64,000 nucleotides of DNA from an uncultured Bacillales bacterium (GTDB lineage Bacteria > Bacillota_I > Bacilli_A > RFN20 > CAG-449), in NCBI GenBank assembly GCA_945873815.1, contig CAMCEE010000002.1:103781-167780 (forward strand). The letters are read 5' to 3'. Shown here one piece after another: positions 50,559-59,961 of this stretch. The position numbers and the translations under genes are program-made. Numbering within the stretch: position 1 is the stretch's first letter; the number at the start of each line of letters is the position of its first letter. The notes beneath the pieces are model-generated. The model was not told the origin of the DNA. It did no database searches and worked only from the letters and a program-made list of their open reading frames with translations.

Positions 50559-52835
50559 ATGGAGAATTTAACAAAAAAAGAAAAAATATCAACCTTTGTA
50601 AATTATGGAATAATTTTCATAATGATAATAACGTTCTTTTTCGGATTATTTGGATTAAATGATGTCAGTAAGAAAAAAAGTAAAGATGAACTGATATCAT
50701 TAAATGAGAATTGGAGCATTAATGGTGATATTGTTGATATATCAGATTATAAAGTTTTATTAGGTAAAGATGAAAAAATAACTCTATCTTATGTGACAGA
50801 TGAAACGTTATATCGAAATAATAATTTACTTTTTTATTGCGATATGATGGGAATAGATGTTTTTGTTAATGATAAAAAGATTTATACGGTTAATCGAAGT
50901 GAAATAAGCGGTTGCGTATTAGTTAGATCGATGGTTGTAGTTGATCTAATCAATGTGTGTATTGGTGATACTGTATCTATTGATATTTATAATATTAGGG
51001 GAGATTCTCTTGAATATGAATTACCTACAATTAAGGCAGGAACTGAGAATTCAATTAAGAATAGTATATTTTTGGAAGAAAGTATAACGATTTTTTCTTT
51101 TATTCTTTCTATCGCTGTATTAATAACTTTTATTACATATATTTTCTATGCCTCGAAAACAAGGAAAACGATGGAGAAAAGATTTGTCTCTTTTGGTTTA
51201 TTCATATTAGTTTCAACGATATGGTTATTTTTTGATTCGAATCTAGCTAATACACTTCCTTTAAATATTGAAACTACATCTCTTATATCATTATATTTAT
51301 TTAAACTTCTTCCTCTTGGATTGTTATTTTTTGTGTTACGTTCATTCAAGAGCGATCGTGTCATTCTAATTAGAATAATGATTATCTTATGTTACATCAA
51401 TATTGCAACTGGTACGTTATTATCCTTTTTAAGAGTGATTCCACTTAATAATCTAGTTTTCATTGATCAAACATTATTTGGATTATCGGTTATGGCAACA
51501 TTGTTTTATGTAAATGTTTACGCGAGAAAATATAGAAATGAGCCACAACAAAAAATCACATTTATTGCTTTCTTTGTTTTATTAGCATTCTATATTTCAT
51601 CCTTAGTATGTTATTACATTTATGAATCGAAGATATATCACGATATAATGTCTATTGCAATCGTCATATTCTACGTATTTATCTTCTTGATTGTCATTTA
51701 TTTTTCTAGAGTGGATTCTAAGTTAAAGAAGAAAGTTGCAGAAGAAAGAGAATATTATCGTTTAATGTCATATAAAGATGAATTAACTGGGCTTAATAAT
51801 ATTCGTGCATACGAAGAAGATTTGAAATCCTTTGAGACCCAAAAGACAGAAAATACTATATTAGTGGTGATCGATATTAATGATGTTAAACGAATAAATG
51901 ATACATATGGACATGGAGCAGGTAATGTACTTATCACTCAATGTGCACAATGCATTACAAAAACATTTAGTAAATATGGAAGGTGCTACCGCATACGAGG
52001 AAATGAATTTGCCTTAATTATTGATTATCCTTCCTTCGATATTGAAAAGAGATTATCGTATTTTAATGAATTAATAAAGGCTTCAAACGGAGATAGAATA
52101 TATAAACTATCAGTTGCAGTAGGCTATGCAAAATATAAAGATAATGAAGGAAAGATGCTTGAGGATCTTCGTTTCCAAGCTGATCTAGATATGTATAAAG
52201 ATAAGAATAGAAAGAGATTAGTTGAGATCAAATCTAAAAATGAAATATGGCAAAAGATGATTGATACTATCATTTCTATATTTGAAGTTAAGGACCCATA
52301 TACGGCTCAACATTCAAATAGAGTAAGTTACCTTTCTAAATTTATTGCTGAATCAATGGGGTTTACCGAATTAGCAATACAAGATATTTTCCTTGCAGGA
52401 AAGCTTCATGATATTGGGAAGATTGGAATTTCGGATAAGATTCTAACAAAGAAAGCAAGATTGAATGATGAGGAATTTGAAGAGATTAAGAAGCACACTA
52501 TTATTGGAGAAAAGATTATTAAATCGTCTGGTGGCATGGACAAAATTGCAAATATTATTCGTCACCATCACGAAAAATATAATGGTACTGGATACCCAGA
52601 CAGAATATCAAAGGATGATATTCCAATTGAATCTAGAATACTTGCAATTGCAGATTCAATCGATGCAATGACTTCCGATCGTTGCTACAGAAAAGCATTA
52701 ACTTACGATGAATGTAAGGAAGAGATTACAAGAAATTTAGGTGTTCAATACGATCCAATTGTTGGAAAATATACTCTTGAAAATTGGGATGAATTAGTCT
52801 CAATTCATAAAGAATTAAGAAATCAATTAGATTGA
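50559..52835 (+). CDS. Membrane sensor: 7TMR-DISM-like extracellular and 7TM N-terminus, degenerate GGDEF domain (RGNEF), and HD-GYP c-di-GMP phosphodiesterase domain
   Basis: N-terminal signal/TM, a periplasmic domain, then 7 TM helices. The GGDEF-fold region carries RIRGNEFALII instead of GG(D/E)EF. The HD-GYP motifs are HDIGK and HHEKYNGTGYPD. Confidence 0.75.
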   Translation: MENLTKKEKISTFVNYGIIFIMIITFFFGLFGLNDVSKKKSKDELISLNENWSINGDIVDISDYKVLLGKDEKITLSYVTDETLYRNNNLLFYCDMMGIDVFVNDKKIYTVNRSEISGCVLVRSMVVVDLINVCIGDTVSIDIYNIRGDSLEYELPTIKAGTENSIKNSIFLEESITIFSFILSIAVLITFITYIFYASKTRKTMEKRFVSFGLFILVSTIWLFFDSNLANTLPLNIETTSLISLYLFKLLPLGLLFFVLRSFKSDRVILIRIMIILCYINIATGTLLSFLRVIPLNNLVFIDQTLFGLSVMATLFYVNVYARKYRNEPQQKITFIAFFVLLAFYISSLVCYYIYESKIYHDIMSIAIVIFYVFIFLIVIYFSRVDSKLKKKVAEEREYYRLMSYKDELTGLNNIRAYEEDLKSFETQKTENTILVVIDINDVKRINDTYGHGAGNVLITQCAQCITKTFSKYGRCYRIRGNEFALIIDYPSFDIEKRLSYFNELIKASNGDRIYKLSVAVGYAKYKDNEGKMLEDLRFQADLDMYKDKNRKRLVEIKSKNEIWQKMIDTIISIFEVKDPYTAQHSNRVSYLSKFIAESMGFTELAIQDIFLAGKLHDIGKIGISDKILTKKARLNDEEFEEIKKHTIIGEKIIKSSGGMDKIANIIRHHHEKYNGTGYPDRISKDDIPIESRILAIADSIDAMTSDRCYRKALTYDECKEEITRNLGVQYDPIVGKYTLENWDELVSIHKELRNQLD

Positions 52836-52984
52836 TCTTATAATAAAATAATGACGAAAAAATACAAATGTATTAATTTTTTATGCAAAAACTCTAATGT
52901 TTTTTAATAAAGAATAAAAAAATCTTTAAAAATCAAAATTTTTTTCAAAACCTCTTGCAATATAAAAAAAACCGCATTATTATG

Positions 52985-53075
52985 TATTTGTATTTGGGGG
53001 CAAAATTGTAGCAATACAATGACGCAAAACTAGAGGGTCCTACAGGGATAGCCAGTTGCAATATGTAACTATTTA
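52985..53075 (+). ncRNA. Candidate c-di-GMP-I (GEMM) riboswitch
   Basis: GGGGGCAAAA, then the hairpin ATTGTA-GCAA-TACAAT (GNRA tetraloop), then GACGCAAAAC, then TAGAGGGTCC, then GGGATAGCCAGTTGC. This parallels the GEMM-I core GGCAAACC / GNRA-capped P1b / GACGCAAAGC / GGGUC. It lies in the 5' leader of the 53251 operon. Confidence 0.5.
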
Positions 53076-53113
53076 TTAGAACGTATGTTGCGATTGGATT
53101 AGAAAATTGAAAC

Positions 53114-53150
53114 AAACCGCTCTAATAAAAGATGAGCGGTTTTTATTTTC
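53114..53150 (+). terminator. Intrinsic terminator (probable riboswitch expression platform)
   Basis: CCGCTC-taataaaagatga-GAGCGG followed by TTTTTATTTT. It lies about 40 nt after the aptamer and 100 nt before the first CDS. Confidence 0.6.
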
Positions 53151-53250
53151 TAAAATAGTTACTCACCTTGAATGGTAAAATCTTACTTATCAGTGTAGAA
53201 AGGAAGAAGTTGGAGAAAAAGAAAACTAATGTTATGAGGAGGGGGAAAAT

Positions 53251-53988
53251 ATGAAGTCATCTGTAGTTCGTAAATATCACCGCCTCGCACTTAGCAAGAA
53301 ATTCACCACTAGGGCATTAGCAATTCTTGGTACTCTCATTCTTCTTATCGCAGCACTAACAATCTATGGCTCACAAACTGGAAACTTCGTCGTATCGGTA
53401 AAAAATATTAACCGCAATGAAAGTATTGCTCTATCGATAGAAGAAGATAAAAGTAATGAAGTCTCTAGATTGATTGCAAATCCATTAAAGGATTGCATAG
53501 ATGGGTGTTACGATGACATTCCTGAAGACATTGATGAAGGATTAGGCTCCAAAAACGACAAATCCGGAAGGTATTTGGCAATGTCATTCTATTTAATTAA
53601 TAATGGAATGACGACAAGAAACGTCGCTATGGATTTCAGAATTACTCAAGTTACGAAAAGGATCGATACAATACTTCGAGTAATGATTATCCAAGATGGT
53701 GAAAAAACATTCTTCTCAAAAGCCAGAGAGGATGTAGATAACGGAGACGGGTTAGGGGAACCAATATGGGGCTTTGATTACTCCGGACGGTATGTTATTA
53801 CAAATGCAAATGCATTCGATGATGAATACATCGTTCACAAGAAAATCAATGATTTCGAAAAAGGCTCTTCAATAAAATTCACGATAGTGATGTGGCTTGA
53901 TGGTTTAGATGATCAAAACCCAGATGGAAATAGAGATATGTTGGGTGGAGCACTAAAAACCGAATTGAATTTTAGCATTATAGGCTAA
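53251..53988 (+). CDS. Hypothetical N-terminally membrane-anchored or secreted protein (TapA-like position)
   Basis: RBS GAGGAGGGGG. The N-terminal hydrophobic segment is ALAILGTLILLIAALTIYGS. It is the first gene downstream of the riboswitch candidate. Confidence 0.4.
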   Translation: MKSSVVRKYHRLALSKKFTTRALAILGTLILLIAALTIYGSQTGNFVVSVKNINRNESIALSIEEDKSNEVSRLIANPLKDCIDGCYDDIPEDIDEGLGSKNDKSGRYLAMSFYLINNGMTTRNVAMDFRITQVTKRIDTILRVMIIQDGEKTFFSKAREDVDNGDGLGEPIWGFDYSGRYVITNANAFDDEYIVHKKINDFEKGSSIKFTIVMWLDGLDDQNPDGNRDMLGGALKTELNFSIIG

Positions 53989-54015: not shown

Positions 54016-54846
54016 ATGAAAAAGACAAGTTCAAAATTATTCTTAGCTGCAGCAGCATTAGGTTTAGCAGCAGCATCAACAGTAGGATCAACATACGCAT
54101 GGTTCACTGTTAATGGATCAGCACAAGCTTCAGGATTATCAATGGAAGTTGCAAGTGGATCAGGTATTATGATAAAAAAACATGCTGATTCAACTTATTT
54201 AGCAGATATGAATATTTCAACTGATTTTGCGGGAAAGAAATGGGAACCATGTACACCAACTGCTCCAAATGATTTATCTAGCTTTAAGAAGCTTAATATT
54301 CAAGATACAATCAGTAGTAACGGATATACATATGATAATGCAGTAAACACTGATAATAAACTTTATTTCTATACACTTGATTTAGATGTTAGAGTGTCTG
54401 CAGGCTTTAATTTTAAAGTATATGTTTCTGATATTAGTGATACTTCTAGTCAAGATGCTGATTGTAAAGCTGCAAATGTTGTAAGAGTAGGTTTTAGAAA
54501 ATATGATAAAACTGGAAACAACATTACTGAAACAACTGTTCATACTATTCAAACAAGAAATTATGGTTCTGAAAGTAATTATGCTTTAACTAAATTTAAG
54601 AGTGTATTTGGTATCAACGATCCTGCATTTACAGCAGAAACTTCTAATATAACTGATTGTATCAATGGTGAAGGTTTGAATTGTAAAACTGTAACTATAG
54701 CTGAAGGCGCAGAAGCTCTTAATGGATATGTTACACAAAGAGTTGAAATCGTTGTATGGTATGAAGGAAATGACTATCAATGTGCAGATGATATTTTATC
54801 AAAAAAAGTAACATTCAAATTGAACTTCGTACCAGTAGATGCATAA
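54016..54846 (+). CDS. Secreted TasA/camelysin-family-like protein with a SipW-cognate-class signal peptide
   Basis: Signal MKKTSSKLFLAAAALGLAAASTVGSTYAWFTVNG. The …G(S/T)(Y/F)A(W/Y)F… ending is characteristic of SipW substrates such as TasA and CalY. A SipW gene follows immediately. Confidence 0.5.
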   Translation: MKKTSSKLFLAAAALGLAAASTVGSTYAWFTVNGSAQASGLSMEVASGSGIMIKKHADSTYLADMNISTDFAGKKWEPCTPTAPNDLSSFKKLNIQDTISSNGYTYDNAVNTDNKLYFYTLDLDVRVSAGFNFKVYVSDISDTSSQDADCKAANVVRVGFRKYDKTGNNITETTVHTIQTRNYGSESNYALTKFKSVFGINDPAFTAETSNITDCINGEGLNCKTVTIAEGAEALNGYVTQRVEIVVWYEGNDYQCADDILSKKVTFKLNFVPVDA

Positions 54847-54978
54847 TTTATATATTTATTAGCAAAAACTATATATTTCATTTAATAAAATGGGTTAGTG
54901 GTGTTGCCACTTCCCTATTTTATTATTATAATAAACTTGGTATATTATAAATATTTATAATATCAAGCGAGGTACTTT

Positions 54979-55824
54979 ATGAAAAATAATGTTTTAAAGA
55001 AAGTGTTAAAGATTTCAGGTAACGTTCTTTTTGGAATCTTTTTAGTCTTTATTTTGTTTATTGCAATAACAAATATTAGAGCTAAATCAACCGATAATGT
55101 TCCAAATATTTTTGGATATGGGTACTTAAATGTATTATCCGATTCTATGGATGGAGATAAAGAGGACTCATTTAAAATTGGTGATTTGATTTTTGTTAAA
55201 CTAGTTAATAAAGAAGAAGCAGAAAATTTAAAAGTAGGAGATATCATTACCTATAGAACTATTATTGATGGTAAGGATATGACTATTTCCCATAGAATTA
55301 TTAGAATTGAACCTGACAATCCTTATAAATATGTTACGCAAGGTGATCATCCTTCTTCTAGTATGGCGGCAACTGATGCTGTTAAAGTAAATCAAGTTAT
55401 CGCAGTATATCAAGGTAAATGGGCTGGTGCTGGTTCAGTATTTGCTTGGTTCTCGAGTGGATTTGGATTTTTTCTTATTGTATGTGTACCTTGTATTTTA
55501 TTCTTGATTTTTGAAATCATTAATTTCGTAAAAGTATATATGGAATATAAAAACGAAAAACAACAAGTTGCTATGGCAGGTGGACCTGATAGCATTCAAA
55601 ATAAGATTAGAATGAGAAAGGCAGCATATGATGATCTTGTTAAAGAGGGTACTTTAACTAAAGAGCAAGCAGAGGCTGCACTTAATGAATATATTAAGAG
55701 TGTATCTGTAATAGAAAATGATACTACTTTAGAAGAAAAGCCTGTAGGTGCTAATGAATCATTAGAAGTATCTACTGAAGAAGCAAAGGAAAAAACTTCA
55801 GCAGTTGAAGAAAAAAATGAATAA
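54979..55824 (+). CDS. sipW: Signal peptidase I, archaeal-type SipW family (S26), with a C-terminal extension
   Basis: N-terminal TM. The catalytic block is NVLSDSMDGD…IGDLIFV…VGDIITY…ISHRIIRIE…TQGDH, matching SipW VLSxSME…VGDIITF…THRVVEI…TKGDNN. A second TM and a K/E-rich tail follow. Confidence 0.75.
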   Translation: MKNNVLKKVLKISGNVLFGIFLVFILFIAITNIRAKSTDNVPNIFGYGYLNVLSDSMDGDKEDSFKIGDLIFVKLVNKEEAENLKVGDIITYRTIIDGKDMTISHRIIRIEPDNPYKYVTQGDHPSSSMAATDAVKVNQVIAVYQGKWAGAGSVFAWFSSGFGFFLIVCVPCILFLIFEIINFVKVYMEYKNEKQQVAMAGGPDSIQNKIRMRKAAYDDLVKEGTLTKEQAEAALNEYIKSVSVIENDTTLEEKPVGANESLEVSTEEAKEKTSAVEEKNE

Positions 55825-55935: not shown

Positions 55936-57579
55936 TTGATGAACGAATTTGCTCAATATTATTTAGAATTCATGCGTCAAGTTTGGGAACAAATTTGTAA
56001 TTTCTTTGTTGGATTATATAATTGTTTCGCTGATATTCTTGTATTAAATCATATTGACAACATTAAATTGATTGGAAAATATGCAAATAGTTTTAATGTA
56101 TTATCTTGGATTTTATTTGTAATAATTGATGGTATTACATTAGCTTTTATTGTTTTATTATTTGTTAAGGCATTCCAATTATTGAGAAGATGGTTGAAAT
56201 TTAGAAAGAAAGAAGTTGAAAAAGAAGACTTACTATTTGAAATTGCTCAATTGAAAGAGGAAGTTAAACGTACAATTAAGGATAAAGAGAGAATTCTTAA
56301 TTTACAACTAGGTGAAGTAAGAGAACAAGGTTTATTAGTTCCTTCAAAAGGTATGATTACGCAAGAAGATGCAACGGGAGGCTACTATCCTAGTGATGAA
56401 TTAGTTAGCGTTTCTCCTCAAAGCTTTTTACCTAGTGATATGAAAAGTGAAAAAGAAGTCACTTCTTCTAGTGCAACAGAAGAAAAAGGAAGATTCTCAA
56501 AACTTGCGCTTGTTGATCAAAAATATGCGGAATCAGGTATTTACCATATTACAATGACAGAAGATGATTTAGTTGGATTACCTGAAATTATTAATAGATT
56601 CGTTAATTATGCGGCTAGTCAACATCATTTGTATTATACAAAACGTACAATTTCTAAATTTGTCGCAGGTTTAGCTACTTCAAAGATTATTATTCTTGAA
56701 GGTATATCTGGTACTGGTAAAACATCATTGCCATATGCTTTTTCAAGATTTATGAAGAACCAAGCTCAAATCGTTTCTGTACAACCTTCTTGGAGAGATA
56801 GAACAGAAATTCTAGGTTATTTAAATGAATTTACAAAGAAATTTAATGAAACTGACTTCTTAAAGGCATTATATGAAGTTTCTTATCGTGAAGATGTTAA
56901 CTTAATCGTCCTTGATGAGTTGAACTTAGCTCGTATTGAATATTATTTTGCTGAATTCTTATCTATTATGGAAATGCCTGATAAGAGTGAATGGAAAATT
57001 GACCTTGTTCCAACACAAGAGCCTAATGATCCACATCATTTAACTGAAGGAAAATTATTGATTCCACAAAACTTATGGTATATTGGAACAGCAAACAAGG
57101 ATGACTCAACTTTTACTATTACTGATAAGGTTTACGATAGAGCTGTTACTCTTTATTTAAATGAAAGAGCAAAATATTTTGATGCTCCATTTACTGAATC
57201 TATCAATTTATCATATGATTATTTACAAAAACTCTTTGATGAAGCTAGTGAATTACATACGATTTCATTAAAGAATTTAGATAATATCGAAAAATTAGAT
57301 GAATTTGTCCAAGAAAATTTCAAGATTGCTTTTGGTAACCGTATTATGAAACAAATTAAGACATTCGTTCCTGTATACGTTGCTTGTGGTAATTCTGAAT
57401 TAGATGGATTGGATTACATGATTTGTACAAAGATATTTAAGAAATTTGAGGCATTAAACTTGCCTTTCTTGAAGAAGGAATTAGAGGGTTTAATCGCATT
57501 AATTCAAAAATTATACGGAAAAGAATCGTTTAAAGAATCAATTGCATATTTACGTGATTTATTAAAGATGGCTTCGTAG
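55936..57579 (+). CDS. Membrane-anchored McrB-like AAA+ (AAA_5) NTPase with an N-terminal TM helix and coiled coil
   Basis: TM helix SWILFVIIDGITLAFIVLLFV. Walker A LEGISGTGKTSL. The Walker B and sensor region is LIVLDELNLARIEYYFAEFLSIME. The motif WYIGTANKDDSTFTITDKVYDRA matches McrB blocks DEINRA…GEL.YLLEYR and IGTMNTADRS…RR. Confidence 0.6.
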   Translation: MMNEFAQYYLEFMRQVWEQICNFFVGLYNCFADILVLNHIDNIKLIGKYANSFNVLSWILFVIIDGITLAFIVLLFVKAFQLLRRWLKFRKKEVEKEDLLFEIAQLKEEVKRTIKDKERILNLQLGEVREQGLLVPSKGMITQEDATGGYYPSDELVSVSPQSFLPSDMKSEKEVTSSSATEEKGRFSKLALVDQKYAESGIYHITMTEDDLVGLPEIINRFVNYAASQHHLYYTKRTISKFVAGLATSKIIILEGISGTGKTSLPYAFSRFMKNQAQIVSVQPSWRDRTEILGYLNEFTKKFNETDFLKALYEVSYREDVNLIVLDELNLARIEYYFAEFLSIMEMPDKSEWKIDLVPTQEPNDPHHLTEGKLLIPQNLWYIGTANKDDSTFTITDKVYDRAVTLYLNERAKYFDAPFTESINLSYDYLQKLFDEASELHTISLKNLDNIEKLDEFVQENFKIAFGNRIMKQIKTFVPVYVACGNSELDGLDYMICTKIFKKFEALNLPFLKKELEGLIALIQKLYGKESFKESIAYLRDLLKMAS

Positions 57580-57599
57580 TTTATTGTAGGTGATTTAGT

Positions 57600-59333
57600 A
57601 TGGCAGATATAAATTTTGAAAAAAAATACTATTCATCAATACTAGGATCTATCAATAGAAATGATAGTCACAACTTTTATAATGAAATGCTCAATGCAAT
57701 TAAAGGCGGCAATATGGAAGTATTCCTTACTCGTAGCCGTCAACAATTGTCATTTGATTCGACATGGATTCATCAAATTAGTGACTATTTAAGATACGTA
57801 GAGAATATCGTTAGAAATCCTCGTATCTACATGTTAGCAGTTGAAGAAGTTACTCCAATTCAAAGAGCAAAGAAGATTAATGCTAGATCAATTCAACATT
57901 TATCTTCTCACGTTCAAAATGTTCAAGAACTTAGAAAAGATGGAACTATTGTTCCTTCAAAAGTATTATCGACAACTTTTGAAGATACTTTTGCAATATA
58001 TGAAAACAGATTTGTTATGACATTAATTAACAAATTAGCTGCTTTCGTTGAAGTTAGATATGATTCCATTTTAGAAAGTATTAAATCATATCAAATGGAT
58101 AAGATTGTTGCAAAATCATCTTTTGTTTGGCGAAATTATTCAATCGATGCAAAGATTGAATTAAATGTTAAAGAAGAAATTTTAGATGAAGTAAGTAAGA
58201 AAAATAAGGAATTATTGGATGATATTATCGTTATTAGAAATTATGTTAGAGGATTTATGACTTCAAGTTTCTATCAAACAATGAAAGAGAGAACTCGTCC
58301 TGTTACTCCTCCTATTTTAAGAACTAATATCATTACAAAATCTGTTGATTATAACTCATGTTTGAAATTGTGGCTATTCTTAGATTCTTACCGTCAACTA
58401 GGTGTTGATTTAGAAGTTATGGATAAAGAATTACCATTTGATGATAAGTTCATTGATGAAGTTAGCGATATGCTATTTATGAACTATTCTTTGTTTGTAT
58501 CTAACCAAGAGGATAGAAAAGAGAATTATGAACTTCTTCCATTTAAAAAGAGAAAAGAAAAGAAACCTAAAGTTAATAAATTATTAGTAGCACATGATGA
58601 AGAAGAGGGATTGAAGGATGATAACATTAATGAACCTACAATTTCAGAATACTTCTATCAAAGAGTAAAGAAAAACTATAAGACAGAATTTACAGAACAA
58701 ATAAATTCAGGTATTTCTTATAATAAAGCCTTCTTAAGCGTATATAAGAAAATGCTTAAAATTGAAAATGGTATTCAAGATGAAATAGTTGAAAGTATGC
58801 AAAAGCGTATTCCTGTCACTAATTCTATTAAAGAAAAAAGAAGAGCAAAACATAAGCAATATAAAAAAATGAAGGGGATGTATGAAAACCTAATCGCAGC
58901 TAAAGAATTGGATTTAGAAAAGGCTCGACAAAAACTAGAGAAATTGAATGAAACTCTTGAAAAATATGCTAAAGAAGAAAAGGAATATCAATTAGAACTT
59001 CGTAGACAAAAAAGAAAGCAACAAAAAGAGGAACTCGAGCTTCAAAATAAAAACGATGAAGAAAAGAAGAAGGAAGAAAAATTAAAGAAGAAAAAAGAAT
59101 CCATTAAAAAGATTCCACTTCCAGTAAGCGACAAACCACTTGAAATTGATCTTCCTGAAAAAGAAGATGCTCCAGTAGTTGCTGAACCAAATGATGAAGA
59201 AATCAAACCTTCTGTTGGAATAAATTCTCGTACTGCTCGTCTTCTAGAATATCTTCAAAAGGCTCGTCAAGCATCAAGAAGTAAAGAAGTTAAGGTCGAA
59301 AGCAGAAATATAGACCACAATGAGGAAAAGTAA
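57600..59333 (+). CDS. Large hypothetical protein (577 aa). The N-terminal globular domain is a possible McrC-like partner. The C-terminus is an extremely K/E-rich coiled coil.
   Basis: It starts 21 nt after the ATPase gene. The C-terminal 250 aa are low-complexity and basic (…KKKEEKLKKKKESIKK…). No PD-(D/E)xK motif could be recognised confidently. Confidence 0.4.
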   Translation: MADINFEKKYYSSILGSINRNDSHNFYNEMLNAIKGGNMEVFLTRSRQQLSFDSTWIHQISDYLRYVENIVRNPRIYMLAVEEVTPIQRAKKINARSIQHLSSHVQNVQELRKDGTIVPSKVLSTTFEDTFAIYENRFVMTLINKLAAFVEVRYDSILESIKSYQMDKIVAKSSFVWRNYSIDAKIELNVKEEILDEVSKKNKELLDDIIVIRNYVRGFMTSSFYQTMKERTRPVTPPILRTNIITKSVDYNSCLKLWLFLDSYRQLGVDLEVMDKELPFDDKFIDEVSDMLFMNYSLFVSNQEDRKENYELLPFKKRKEKKPKVNKLLVAHDEEEGLKDDNINEPTISEYFYQRVKKNYKTEFTEQINSGISYNKAFLSVYKKMLKIENGIQDEIVESMQKRIPVTNSIKEKRRAKHKQYKKMKGMYENLIAAKELDLEKARQKLEKLNETLEKYAKEEKEYQLELRRQKRKQQKEELELQNKNDEEKKKEEKLKKKKESIKKIPLPVSDKPLEIDLPEKEDAPVVAEPNDEEIKPSVGINSRTARLLEYLQKARQASRSKEVKVESRNIDHNEEK

Positions 59334-59334
59334 T

Positions 59335-59961
59335 ATGAAATCGAAGATTAATTGGAAAAAGATTCTAAAGATTTCAGGCAATGTATTATTAGGTATATTA
59401 ATTGCATTCATTCTCTATCTTGTCGTTGAGATTGTTATTGCATTTATTATAAAAAAACCACCATGCATCTTCAATCATTACATATTCGTAGTACTAACTA
59501 ATTCAATGGAAGATACGATTATGGTGGGAGAAGTAGTATTTGTCAAAAGAGCAGCATTCTCAAATGTAAATATTGGCGATATCATATCTTTTATTGATAT
59601 TAATCCATCGGATGCGGTTTATGGACAATATATTACTCATAGAGTAGTTGGAATTACTCAAAATGGTTTACTTATCACACAAGGTGATAATAATATCGTA
59701 CAAGATTCTTACCGTGTTAGTGAGAATAATTTTATCGGAATTATGGATTATCATTCCAAGTTCCTAGGTAGTATTGTTACATTTTTTAGTAACAATTCCA
59801 ATATCGTATTTATTATAGTTTCTATCGTTCTAATAACAGTTATCTGCCTTGAAGCTAAAAACTTTCTTATTTTAAAGGAAAAAGCTAAACAAGAGGATGA
59901 AAAGGAAAAACTAAAAGAACAAATCATGCAAGAGATTAATAAAGGAGAGAAAGAAGAATAG
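59335..59961 (+). CDS. Second SipW-family signal peptidase I paralog
   Basis: MKSKINWKKILKISGNVLLGILIAF is near-identical in pattern to the N-terminus of the 54979 protein. The catalytic block is VVLTNSMEDTIMVGEVVFV…IGDIISF…ITHRVVGIT…TQGDNN. An RBS GAGGAAAAG is 5 nt upstream. The ATG at 59335 is preferred over 59320. Confidence 0.7.
   Translation: MKSKINWKKILKISGNVLLGILIAFILYLVVEIVIAFIIKKPPCIFNHYIFVVLTNSMEDTIMVGEVVFVKRAAFSNVNIGDIISFIDINPSDAVYGQYITHRVVGITQNGLLITQGDNNIVQDSYRVSENNFIGIMDYHSKFLGSIVTFFSNNSNIVFIIVSIVLITVICLEAKNFLILKEKAKQEDEKEKLKEQIMQEINKGEKEE

Follow-up and report, generated by a model that had tools for sequence, protein, structure and literature searches.

A class I c-di-GMP riboswitch, probably a transcriptional ON switch, upstream of a TasA-like and SipW-type gene cluster in an uncultured Bacillales bacterium

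The window analysed here is a stretch of 64,000 nucleotides from contig CAMCEE010000002.1 of an uncultured Bacillales bacterium (assembly GCA_945873815.1). Between an open reading frame (ORF) ending at 52835 and the next one, starting at 53251, it contains an intergenic leader that almost certainly holds a real aptamer for cyclic dimeric guanosine monophosphate (c-di-GMP). We propose that this leader is a canonical class I c-di-GMP riboswitch acting as a transcriptional ON switch, a reading to which we assign a probability of about 0.72, and that the genes it controls begin with two paralogues encoding TasA-like secreted proteins. The RNA itself is not new, as c-di-GMP-I is among the best-characterised riboswitch classes and c-di-GMP riboswitches are already known to control adhesins and pili; the interest lies in the widely conserved, uncharacterised gene cluster behind it.

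When the complete Rfam set of 4227 families was run over the window with gathering thresholds applied, RF01051 (c-di-GMP-I) was found at 52989–53063 on the forward strand, scoring 51.4 bits where 35 are needed for gathering (E = 3.9e-7). The match is far above chance and spans the full model (positions 1–87), and RF01051 was the sole family to reach its gathering score within the 64 kb. This agrees with the original prediction, made by reading the sequence, which had proposed a c-di-GMP-I riboswitch in a 415-nt leader upstream of 53251; inspection of the sequence placed the leader, and every sequence feature listed for it, where that prediction had put them. An Rfam score short of gathering would have refuted the prediction by its own terms, and the score obtained is well above it. 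The c-di-GMP-I-GGC variant (RF03167) was rejected: in a permissive scan of the leader its model scored 45.9 bits, below its gathering score of 59, and the key position after GACGC is A and not G, and therefore the element belongs to canonical class I. Weak Rfam matches by E-value on the terminator region (trpB motif, small RNAs) were discarded as well, since they lie far under their gathering scores and reflect a generic hairpin followed by a U-tract.

In Vc2, the Vibrio cholerae tfoY leader that serves as the structural reference for this class (GEMM-I), the ligand is contacted by G20, A47 and C92, and the interhelical C-G pair is universally conserved (PMC4744006, PMC6140456). The anatomy of the aptamer in the window, taken from the Rfam alignment and computed folds, is as follows, with the Vc2 equivalents placed by the alignment.

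52836–53250, forward strand: intergenic leader, 415 nt
52955–52983, forward strand: promoter-like TTGCAA-17 nt-TATTAT, from a consensus scan
52990–52994 with 53060–53064, forward strand: candidate P1, GUAUU with AAUAU, four A-U pairs and one G-U pair, drawn from the sequence
52996–53005, forward strand: GGGGGCAAAA, read from the sequence
52999–53005, forward strand: GGCAAAA junction block, containing the conserved GGCAAA
52999, forward strand: G, putative equivalent of Vc2 G20, which contacts one ligand guanine
53000–53025, forward strand: first hairpin, called P2 in the crystal numbering; a 6-bp stem enclosed by the pairs G53000-C53025 and C53001-G53024
53005–53010 with 53015–53020, forward strand: the perfect 6-bp stem, AUUGUA-GCAA-UACAAU, with its GCAA tetraloop at 53011–53014
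53021–53030, forward strand: GACGCAAAAC, read from the sequence
53021–53029, forward strand: GACGCAAAA, the conserved GACGCAAA junction block
53023 and 53051, forward strand: C (in GACGC) and G (in UAGCC), predicted equivalent of the Vc2 interhelical pair C44-G83
53026, forward strand: A, putative equivalent of Vc2 A47, which stacks between the two ligand bases
53028–53057, forward strand: second hairpin (P3), short, three paired blocks in the Rfam alignment
53035–53040, forward strand: GGGUCC, read from the sequence
53050–53055, forward strand: AGCCAG, read from the sequence
53059, forward strand: C, putative equivalent of Vc2 C92, the Watson-Crick partner of the other guanine in the ligand

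The GEMM-I architecture is present: two hairpins lie side by side, the first of them capped by a GNRA loop, and the junction holds the GGCAAA and GACGCAAA blocks. The three blocks of P3 are AACU/AGUU (53028–53031/53054–53057), GG/CC (53035–53036/53052–53053) and GUC/GAU (53037–53039/53047–53049). The mapping of C92 and of C44/G83 onto the window, made through the Vc2 sequence, is putative. The promoter-like site would place the transcript start near G52990, which fits the P1 that can be drawn at 52990–52994; its −35 and −10 elements lie at an equal distance from the aptamer in two related loci (L045 and L048), and the promoter scan as a whole was not enriched (6 found, 5.0 expected from shuffles).

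The element recurs with its gene cluster. For the protein encoded by the second gene behind the leader (gene 2), only 19 close homologues were found among 5.8 billion sequences, all of them metagenomic; a profile search of 1.84 billion representatives gave 1139 relatives, and back-translated motifs located 40 loci in species-representative genomes, mostly of Izemoplasmatales, uncultured Bacilli and Mycoplasmatota metagenome-assembled genomes (MAGs). The original prediction had looked to Clostridia, a kinship that did not hold, as the relatives are Bacilli, Izemoplasmatales and Mycoplasmatota MAGs. A c-di-GMP-I aptamer above the Rfam gathering score was detected in 24 of the 35 loci scanned (56.6–66.3 bits), always on the strand of the gene and about 1 kb upstream of it, with one gene between. 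Nine of the 11 negative loci have too little upstream sequence; in the other two, one in an Oscillospiraceae and one in a Lachnospiraceae genome, no aptamer was found despite the presence of upstream sequence. Seven further aptamers stand at loci with homologues of the first gene (gene 1) that are 46–68% identical, and none was found at two loci where gene 1 is 40% identical. In total, 31 other loci, for the most part in MAGs of Izemoplasmatales and uncultured Bacilli, carry an aptamer above the gathering score on the same strand, upstream of a homologous cluster.

Long upstream intergenic regions devoid of an aptamer at the gathering score were seen at L055 and L056 (NCBI MAGs GCA_963623095.1 and GCA_963620285.1), L023 and L024, and therefore the association between riboswitch and cluster is frequent and not universal.

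The structure of the aptamer is supported by covariation among its relatives. In an alignment of 25 aptamers, 99.5% of the cells are standard pairs and 10 of the 19 pairs have changed on both sides, a level reached by none of 500 shuffles, while slid registers are 14–49% paired. All six pairs of the first-hairpin stem show compensatory changes; the pairs of the second hairpin are kept in all relatives, four of them with compensatory change. C53059 is the same in all 25 aptamers, and so are C53023 and G53051. The type of loop tracks P3: a GAAA loop occurs with a CCUUCG/GAUGG receptor-like internal loop, and GCAA (as in the window), GCGA and GUGA loops go with a short, plain P3.

An A at the G20-equivalent position (alignment column 15) is found in all aptamers of the Izemoplasmatales group (among L001–L037, for example L020 4978–5055), as well as in L001 and L050. 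The ligand of these relatives may be another cyclic dinucleotide.

Downstream of the aptamer, the leader contains the following elements.

53052–53065 with 53084–53097, forward strand: alternative hairpin (anti-antiterminator) of 14 bp, CCAGUUGCAAUAUG with UAUGUUGCGAUUGG, from the minimum-free-energy fold
53065–53074 with 53153–53162, forward strand: long-range helix, GUAACUAUUU with AAAUAGUUAC, an exact 10-nt complement, −11.7 kcal/mol
53072–53129, forward strand: candidate antiterminator, from the predicted fold of the nascent chain with the aptamer taken as locked
53114–53149, forward strand: intrinsic terminator, stem AAACCGCUC (53114–53122) with GAGCGGUUU (53134–53142), followed by UUUUUAUUUU

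The terminator consists of a 9-bp stem with 5 G-C pairs and an 11-nt loop (−13.2 kcal/mol folded alone), and the G+C-rich stem directly before a U-tract that marks a Rho-independent terminator is found at 53114–53149. A consensus terminator scanner made no call there because the 11-nt loop exceeds its range of 3–8. The original prediction had placed the terminator 40 nt after the aptamer; it is present, at a distance of about 50 nt. Every relative examined has a terminator with a U-tract downstream of its aptamer, and the output of the riboswitch is probably termination control.

When the segment 52985–53160 is folded unconstrained (z-score −4.96), the fold holds the first hairpin, the 14-bp alternative hairpin and the terminator. 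The alternative hairpin takes up the 3' strand of P3, the C92 equivalent and the 3' strand of P1, and it is therefore mutually exclusive with the ligand-binding fold. It is kept in three diverged species, with 8 bp in L045 and L057 (CCAGUUGC/GCAAUUGG) and 10 bp in L048 (CCAGUUACAA/UUGUGAUUGG), and across these species one pair has changed in a compensatory way, from G-C to A-U, and another from G-U to A-U. The predicted antiterminator (−12.9 kcal/mol, for a nascent chain extending to the terminator loop) pairs 53072–53080 with 53121–53129, 53082–53083 with 53118–53119, 53086–53089 with 53111–53114 and 53091–53095 with 53105–53109, covering 5 of the 9 bases of the terminator 5' stem. In the ligand-free fold, most of its 5' half sits inside the alternative hairpin.

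These elements suggest a four-element relay. Without ligand, the 3' third of the aptamer (53052–53065) would pair with 53084–53097, the resulting 14-bp hairpin would sequester the 5' half of the antiterminator, and the terminator at 53114–53149 would form, so that transcripts would stop ahead of gene 1. With c-di-GMP bound, 53052–53064 would stay within the aptamer, as part of P3, the C92 equivalent and P1, leaving the linker (53072–53095) free to pair with the 5' stem and loop of the terminator as the polymerase crosses the U-tract and allowing read-through into genes 1 and 2 and possibly onward into the genes for SipW, the AAA+ protein, the second SipW and the EAL protein described below.

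The same relay, built from other sequences, is predicted in L045, L048, L001 and L016, where 6–8 of 9–12 stem bases would be occupied; it is strongest in L016 (−19.3 kcal/mol, 8 of 12 stem bases). The Izemoplasmatales leaders and L031 have a direct design, in which the 5' strand of the terminator is the 3' tail of the aptamer itself (GCCGUU..., including the C92 equivalent), and therefore ligand binding and terminator are mutually exclusive, an ON logic. Both designs would thus lead to termination without ligand and to read-through with it. The predicted alternative structures, in the window and in its relatives, favour ON as the probable direction, and in this respect they support the switch that the original prediction had suggested from the nature of the downstream genes.

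In the Izemoplasmatales leaders (for example L004 5030–5130, L005, L017, L020 and L026), two terminator-like hairpins, one after the other, can be closed by GCCGUUAUC from the 3' tail of the aptamer, one short and followed by 6–7 U, the other long, ending in GGUGAUGGC, again followed by 6–7 U and lying about 60–90 nt further on. These double hairpins recall the dual terminator reported for Bc1 (PMC11218506).

Several points weigh against a c-di-GMP-responsive ON switch and have to be set beside this evidence. Within the aptamer, P1 amounts to five weak pairs that show no covariation, and the RF03167 alignment, which models P1, marks non-standard pairs in its own register. Furthermore, of the tetraloop and receptor that the original prediction took as a hallmark of the class, the GCAA tetraloop on its 6-bp hairpin is there and the receptor is not: no tetraloop receptor was found in the second hairpin, and the distal half of P3, which is deleted in the Rfam alignment, is the half that carries the receptor in Vc2-type members. 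GEMM has a described subclass that lacks the tetraloop receptor, and the receptor-less state is compatible with membership. The RNA has every testable feature of the c-di-GMP-I family apart from this receptor, which is a feature of a subclass and not of the family.

As for the expression platform, the terminator still forms when the aptamer pairs are enforced (52985–53160, states of −35.0 and −30.2 kcal/mol), and therefore the switch rests on a kinetic, co-transcriptional argument; equilibrium folding by itself does not show an ON switch, and folds of the nascent chain were used instead. The antiterminator (−12.9 kcal/mol) is not more stable than the terminator (−13.2 kcal/mol), and a duplex between linker and terminator 5' half as good as that in the window arose in 57 of 500 shuffles. 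The platform is identical in all same-species contigs and so shows no covariation within the species; since these leaders are 99% identical, and uninformative in this regard, more distant species were used. Since a promoter-like site and a weak hairpin lie ahead of sipW, the regulated unit may or may not extend beyond gene 2. Finally, all tested class I c-di-GMP riboswitches of Clostridioides difficile are OFF switches and direction is not transferable between species (PMC6366702), and Bc1, a validated class I element, binds its ligand without regulating (PMC11218506).

That last example leads to the alternative that survives best, which we nevertheless consider unlikely: the RNA would bind c-di-GMP without simple control of termination, acting on RNA stability or processing, exerting dual control or having no net regulatory effect, as in Vc2 or Bc1. 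Besides Bc1 (PMC11218506), the class I elements of V. cholerae, which are not termination-based (PMC6366702), offer a precedent. The leader also continues for about 100 nt past the terminator, and its long-range helix joins the segment just past the aptamer to the segment just past the U-tract, with an energy that 1 of 1000 shuffles equalled or surpassed; L045, L057 and L048 have such a helix too, built from other sequences. Because it needs RNA from beyond the terminator, this conserved helix is restricted to read-through transcripts, and the termination model gives it no role. The ribosome-binding site, however, lies about 180 nt downstream and is unpaired with the aptamer in the fold of the full leader; a terminator with its U-tract stands behind the aptamer in every relative examined, and the alternative pairings have the layout of a termination-type switch.

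It is quite unlikely that the aptamer is real and the direction OFF, with c-di-GMP favouring the terminator, even though this is how all tested C. difficile class I elements behave (PMC6366702) and the equilibrium fold has the terminator alongside the folded aptamer. The terminator is already present in the ligand-free minimum-free-energy fold, and an OFF design would need an aptamer segment complementary to the terminator 5' stem, of which none was found in the leader sequence and its folds, so that no ligand-free antiterminator can be drawn; moreover, the related leaders that build the terminator stem from the aptamer 3' tail are incompatible with OFF logic.

A different cyclic dinucleotide, such as 3',3'-cyclic GMP-AMP (3',3'-cGAMP), is very unlikely to be the ligand in the window. 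Most related aptamers (Izemoplasmatales, L001) have A at the G20-equivalent position, and G20A Vc2 and GEMM-Ib elements bind cGAMP or are bispecific (PMC6140456); the window, by contrast, has G there and the canonical bases at the positions of A47 and C92, and its aptamer is flanked by three genes for c-di-GMP turnover. A chance resemblance or a decayed, non-functional relic, to which the truncated second hairpin and weak P1 might point, is already effectively refuted by the conservation data, given a score 16 bits over gathering (E = 3.9e-7), an element that has been retained, with compensatory changes, ahead of the same cluster in different orders, and a leader that is 99% identical between strains whose gene 2 has fallen to 40% identity.

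Returning to the ON switch, the genes placed behind and around it are the following.

50559–52835, upstream of the leader: c-di-GMP gene, 758-aa membrane protein with GGDEF and HD-GYP domains
53251–53988, forward strand: gene 1, 245 aa, N-terminal hydrophobic anchor or signal, paralogue of gene 2
54016–54846, forward strand: gene 2, 276 aa, TasA-like candidate fibre subunit
54979–55824, forward strand: signal peptidase I of the SipW (archaeal) type, scoring 59.9 bits with NCBIfam TIGR02228 (cut-off 51.85)
55936–59333, forward strand: McrB-like AAA+ protein of 547 aa and its partner of 577 aa, with a SipW gene on either side
59320–59961, forward strand: second signal peptidase I of the SipW type, scoring 74.3 bits with TIGR02228 (cut-off 51.85)
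59962, same strand as the cluster: EAL protein, from a domain match
62598, same strand as the cluster: protein with weak GGDEF and EAL matches

Genes 1 and 2 encode paralogues (hhalign probability 98.2%, E 3.5e-14, 195 columns) that have a C-terminal W-x-[DE]-G-x-D motif in common. The N-terminus of gene 2, MKKTSSKLFLAAAALGLAAASTVGSTYAWFT, is the same in all homologues, and its middle is hypervariable between strains. An AlphaFold2 model of gene 2 based on a 71-sequence alignment reached a predicted local distance difference test score (pLDDT) of 83 and a predicted template-modelling score (pTM) of 0.77; a first model, from a 20-sequence alignment, was unusable (pLDDT 51.8) and was discarded. 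Foldseek ranked the Sulfolobus thread (7pnb) and TasA (8aur) at the top for this model, with low TM-scores. No Pfam or NCBIfam family was found for gene 1 or gene 2 (Pfam at E up to 0.01), no TasA/camelysin model matched any of the 71 homologues, and profile searches of Protein Data Bank (PDB) sequences did not find TasA. The curated TasA/camelysin model is Pfam PF12389 (Peptidase_M73).

The original prediction had described a TapA/TasA/SipW-like operon. TapA is structurally related to TasA. The predicted fold and the gene context agree with that description, through the paralogy of genes 1 and 2 and the two TIGR02228 peptidases; membership of the sequence families does not. It had also read a SipW-cognate signal and SipW downstream of the leader, of which the SipW-type peptidases were found; the signal was not, as N-terminal segments of 58 and 67 residues, searched in NCBIfam with E-values of up to 10 allowed, gave no match reaching its cut-off and no SipW-signal model. 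TIGR04088, the SipW-dependent signal-peptide model and presumably part of the library searched, was not among the matches. The stretch ..GSTYAWFT.. bears some resemblance to ..GTWAAFND.. A fair statement, drawing on the structural model, is that genes 1 and 2 appear TasA-like in fold class and context and are not members of the TasA family.

Same-species contigs (L041, L043 and L044) are 97–99% identical to the window on both sides and 99% identical in the leader, and the centre of gene 2 (54192–54757) is replaced; the gene 2 proteins are only 40–87% identical, with signal peptide and C-terminus kept. This centre looks like a recombining, hypervariable surface-subunit cassette, comparable to those of flagellins and pilins.

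On the SipW-type peptidases, the Bacillus SipW equivalog NF046067 scored below its own cut-off. The AAA+ protein has N-terminal hydrophobic segments and matches the PADLOC candidate defence family PDC-M26A (E 9.4e-39); for the 577-aa partner, which is rich in lysine and glutamate, no family match was found. The gene order (gene 1, gene 2, SipW, AAA+, 577-aa partner, SipW) recurs unchanged in Izemoplasma sp. B36, whose genome is complete and where the riboswitch likewise precedes the cluster; there the AAA+ protein is 47% identical, the most conserved member of the cluster, and the 577-aa partner 28%. The AAA+ protein and its partner may be either part of a filament system or a defence-type module.

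In the 132-nt gap between gene 2 and sipW, a promoter-like TTGCCA-17-TATAAT (54904–54932, 11 of 12 matches) is overlapped by a weak hairpin with a T-rich tail (54897–54911). sipW may have its own promoter; transcription may be attenuated after the major subunit, and the processing genes may be expressed separately. A confident assignment to the riboswitch is limited to genes 1 and 2.

The original prediction was right about the three c-di-GMP genes flanking the riboswitch. In the protein encoded at 50559, the GGDEF motif reads RGNEF in translation and the HD and GYP motifs are intact, so that its motifs suggest a phosphodiesterase and not a cyclase; a diguanylate cyclase that is clearly intact was not seen in this part of the window. 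The EAL protein and then the GGDEF-EAL protein follow the cluster on the same strand with tiny gaps. If they are co-transcribed with it, they would exert negative feedback on c-di-GMP.

The riboswitch places an unannotated cluster (TasA-like paralogues, two SipW-type peptidases and a McrB-like AAA+ pair) in the c-di-GMP regulon of sessile, adhesive life, both in uncultured gut Bacilli and in Izemoplasmatales, so that more than 1000 homologous proteins acquire a hypothesis of function that can be tested. In addition, the direct and relay designs make up a small set of class I platforms of the ON type, diverse by nature, that can be compared with one another. No literature link of a c-di-GMP riboswitch to TasA/SipW genes was found, a weak negative given an incomplete coverage of the literature (few subscription journals). 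More tentatively, the riboswitch could be the conserved control of an undescribed six-gene surface-filament system, composed of an anchored minor subunit, a hypervariable TasA-like major subunit, two SipW-type peptidases, a membrane-associated McrB-like AAA+ protein and its 577-aa partner, the last two forming an energy-dependent assembly or export module. If so, such a module would have no counterpart in the Bacillus TasA pathway, and the filament cluster would be common to gut Bacilli and the wall-less or wall-poor Izemoplasmatales and Mycoplasmatota.

Among known gene clusters, the tapA-sipW-tasA operon of Bacillus subtilis and sipW-tasA-calY of Bacillus cereus likewise place a dedicated SipW-type peptidase beside paralogous secreted proteins, beta-sandwiches whose fold is putative for the window, and the gene 2 model comes closest to the TasA fibre subunit. 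The cluster in the window differs from them in having no Pfam or NCBIfam match for its secreted proteins, another gene order, two SipW copies, and the additional McrB-like AAA+ protein and 577-aa partner. The Bacillus TasA operons are under the control of SinR and AbrB and are not known to have a riboswitch. The resemblance to archaeal donor-strand-exchange filaments (the Sulfolobus Saci_0406 thread and the Pyrobaculum bundling pili) is one of fold class only, with identities below 10% and TM-scores of 0.25–0.33.

Among known riboswitches, Vc2 belongs to the same Rfam family and has the same G20, A47 and C92 positions and the same GGCAAA and GACGCAAA blocks as the window; it differs in its GAAA tetraloop with a receptor in a long P3, where the window has a GCAA loop and a short P3 stub without receptor, and in that it is not terminator-based (PMC6366702), whereas the window has a terminator. 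Cd1 and the other C. difficile class I elements combine the same aptamer family with termination-based control, in the OFF direction (PMC6366702) as opposed to the ON direction proposed here. In Bacillus thuringiensis, Bc2, upstream of cap (collagen adhesion protein), is likewise a class I aptamer in a Bacillota leader, and it promotes read-through of a surface adhesion gene at high c-di-GMP (PMC6366702); its downstream gene family and platform sequence differ from ours, for which ON is a prediction. The class II element Cdi-2-4, upstream of pilA1 in C. difficile, shows the same logic and biology as proposed here, with termination in the absence of ligand and, when ligand is bound, read-through into the gene of the major filament subunit and partly into the assembly genes (PMC6366702); it differs in its aptamer class (RF01786) and in serving a type IV pilus, where the window pairs a class I aptamer with a TasA-like protein. 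Functionally, Bc2 and this class II pilA1 riboswitch are the closest systems to the one described here.

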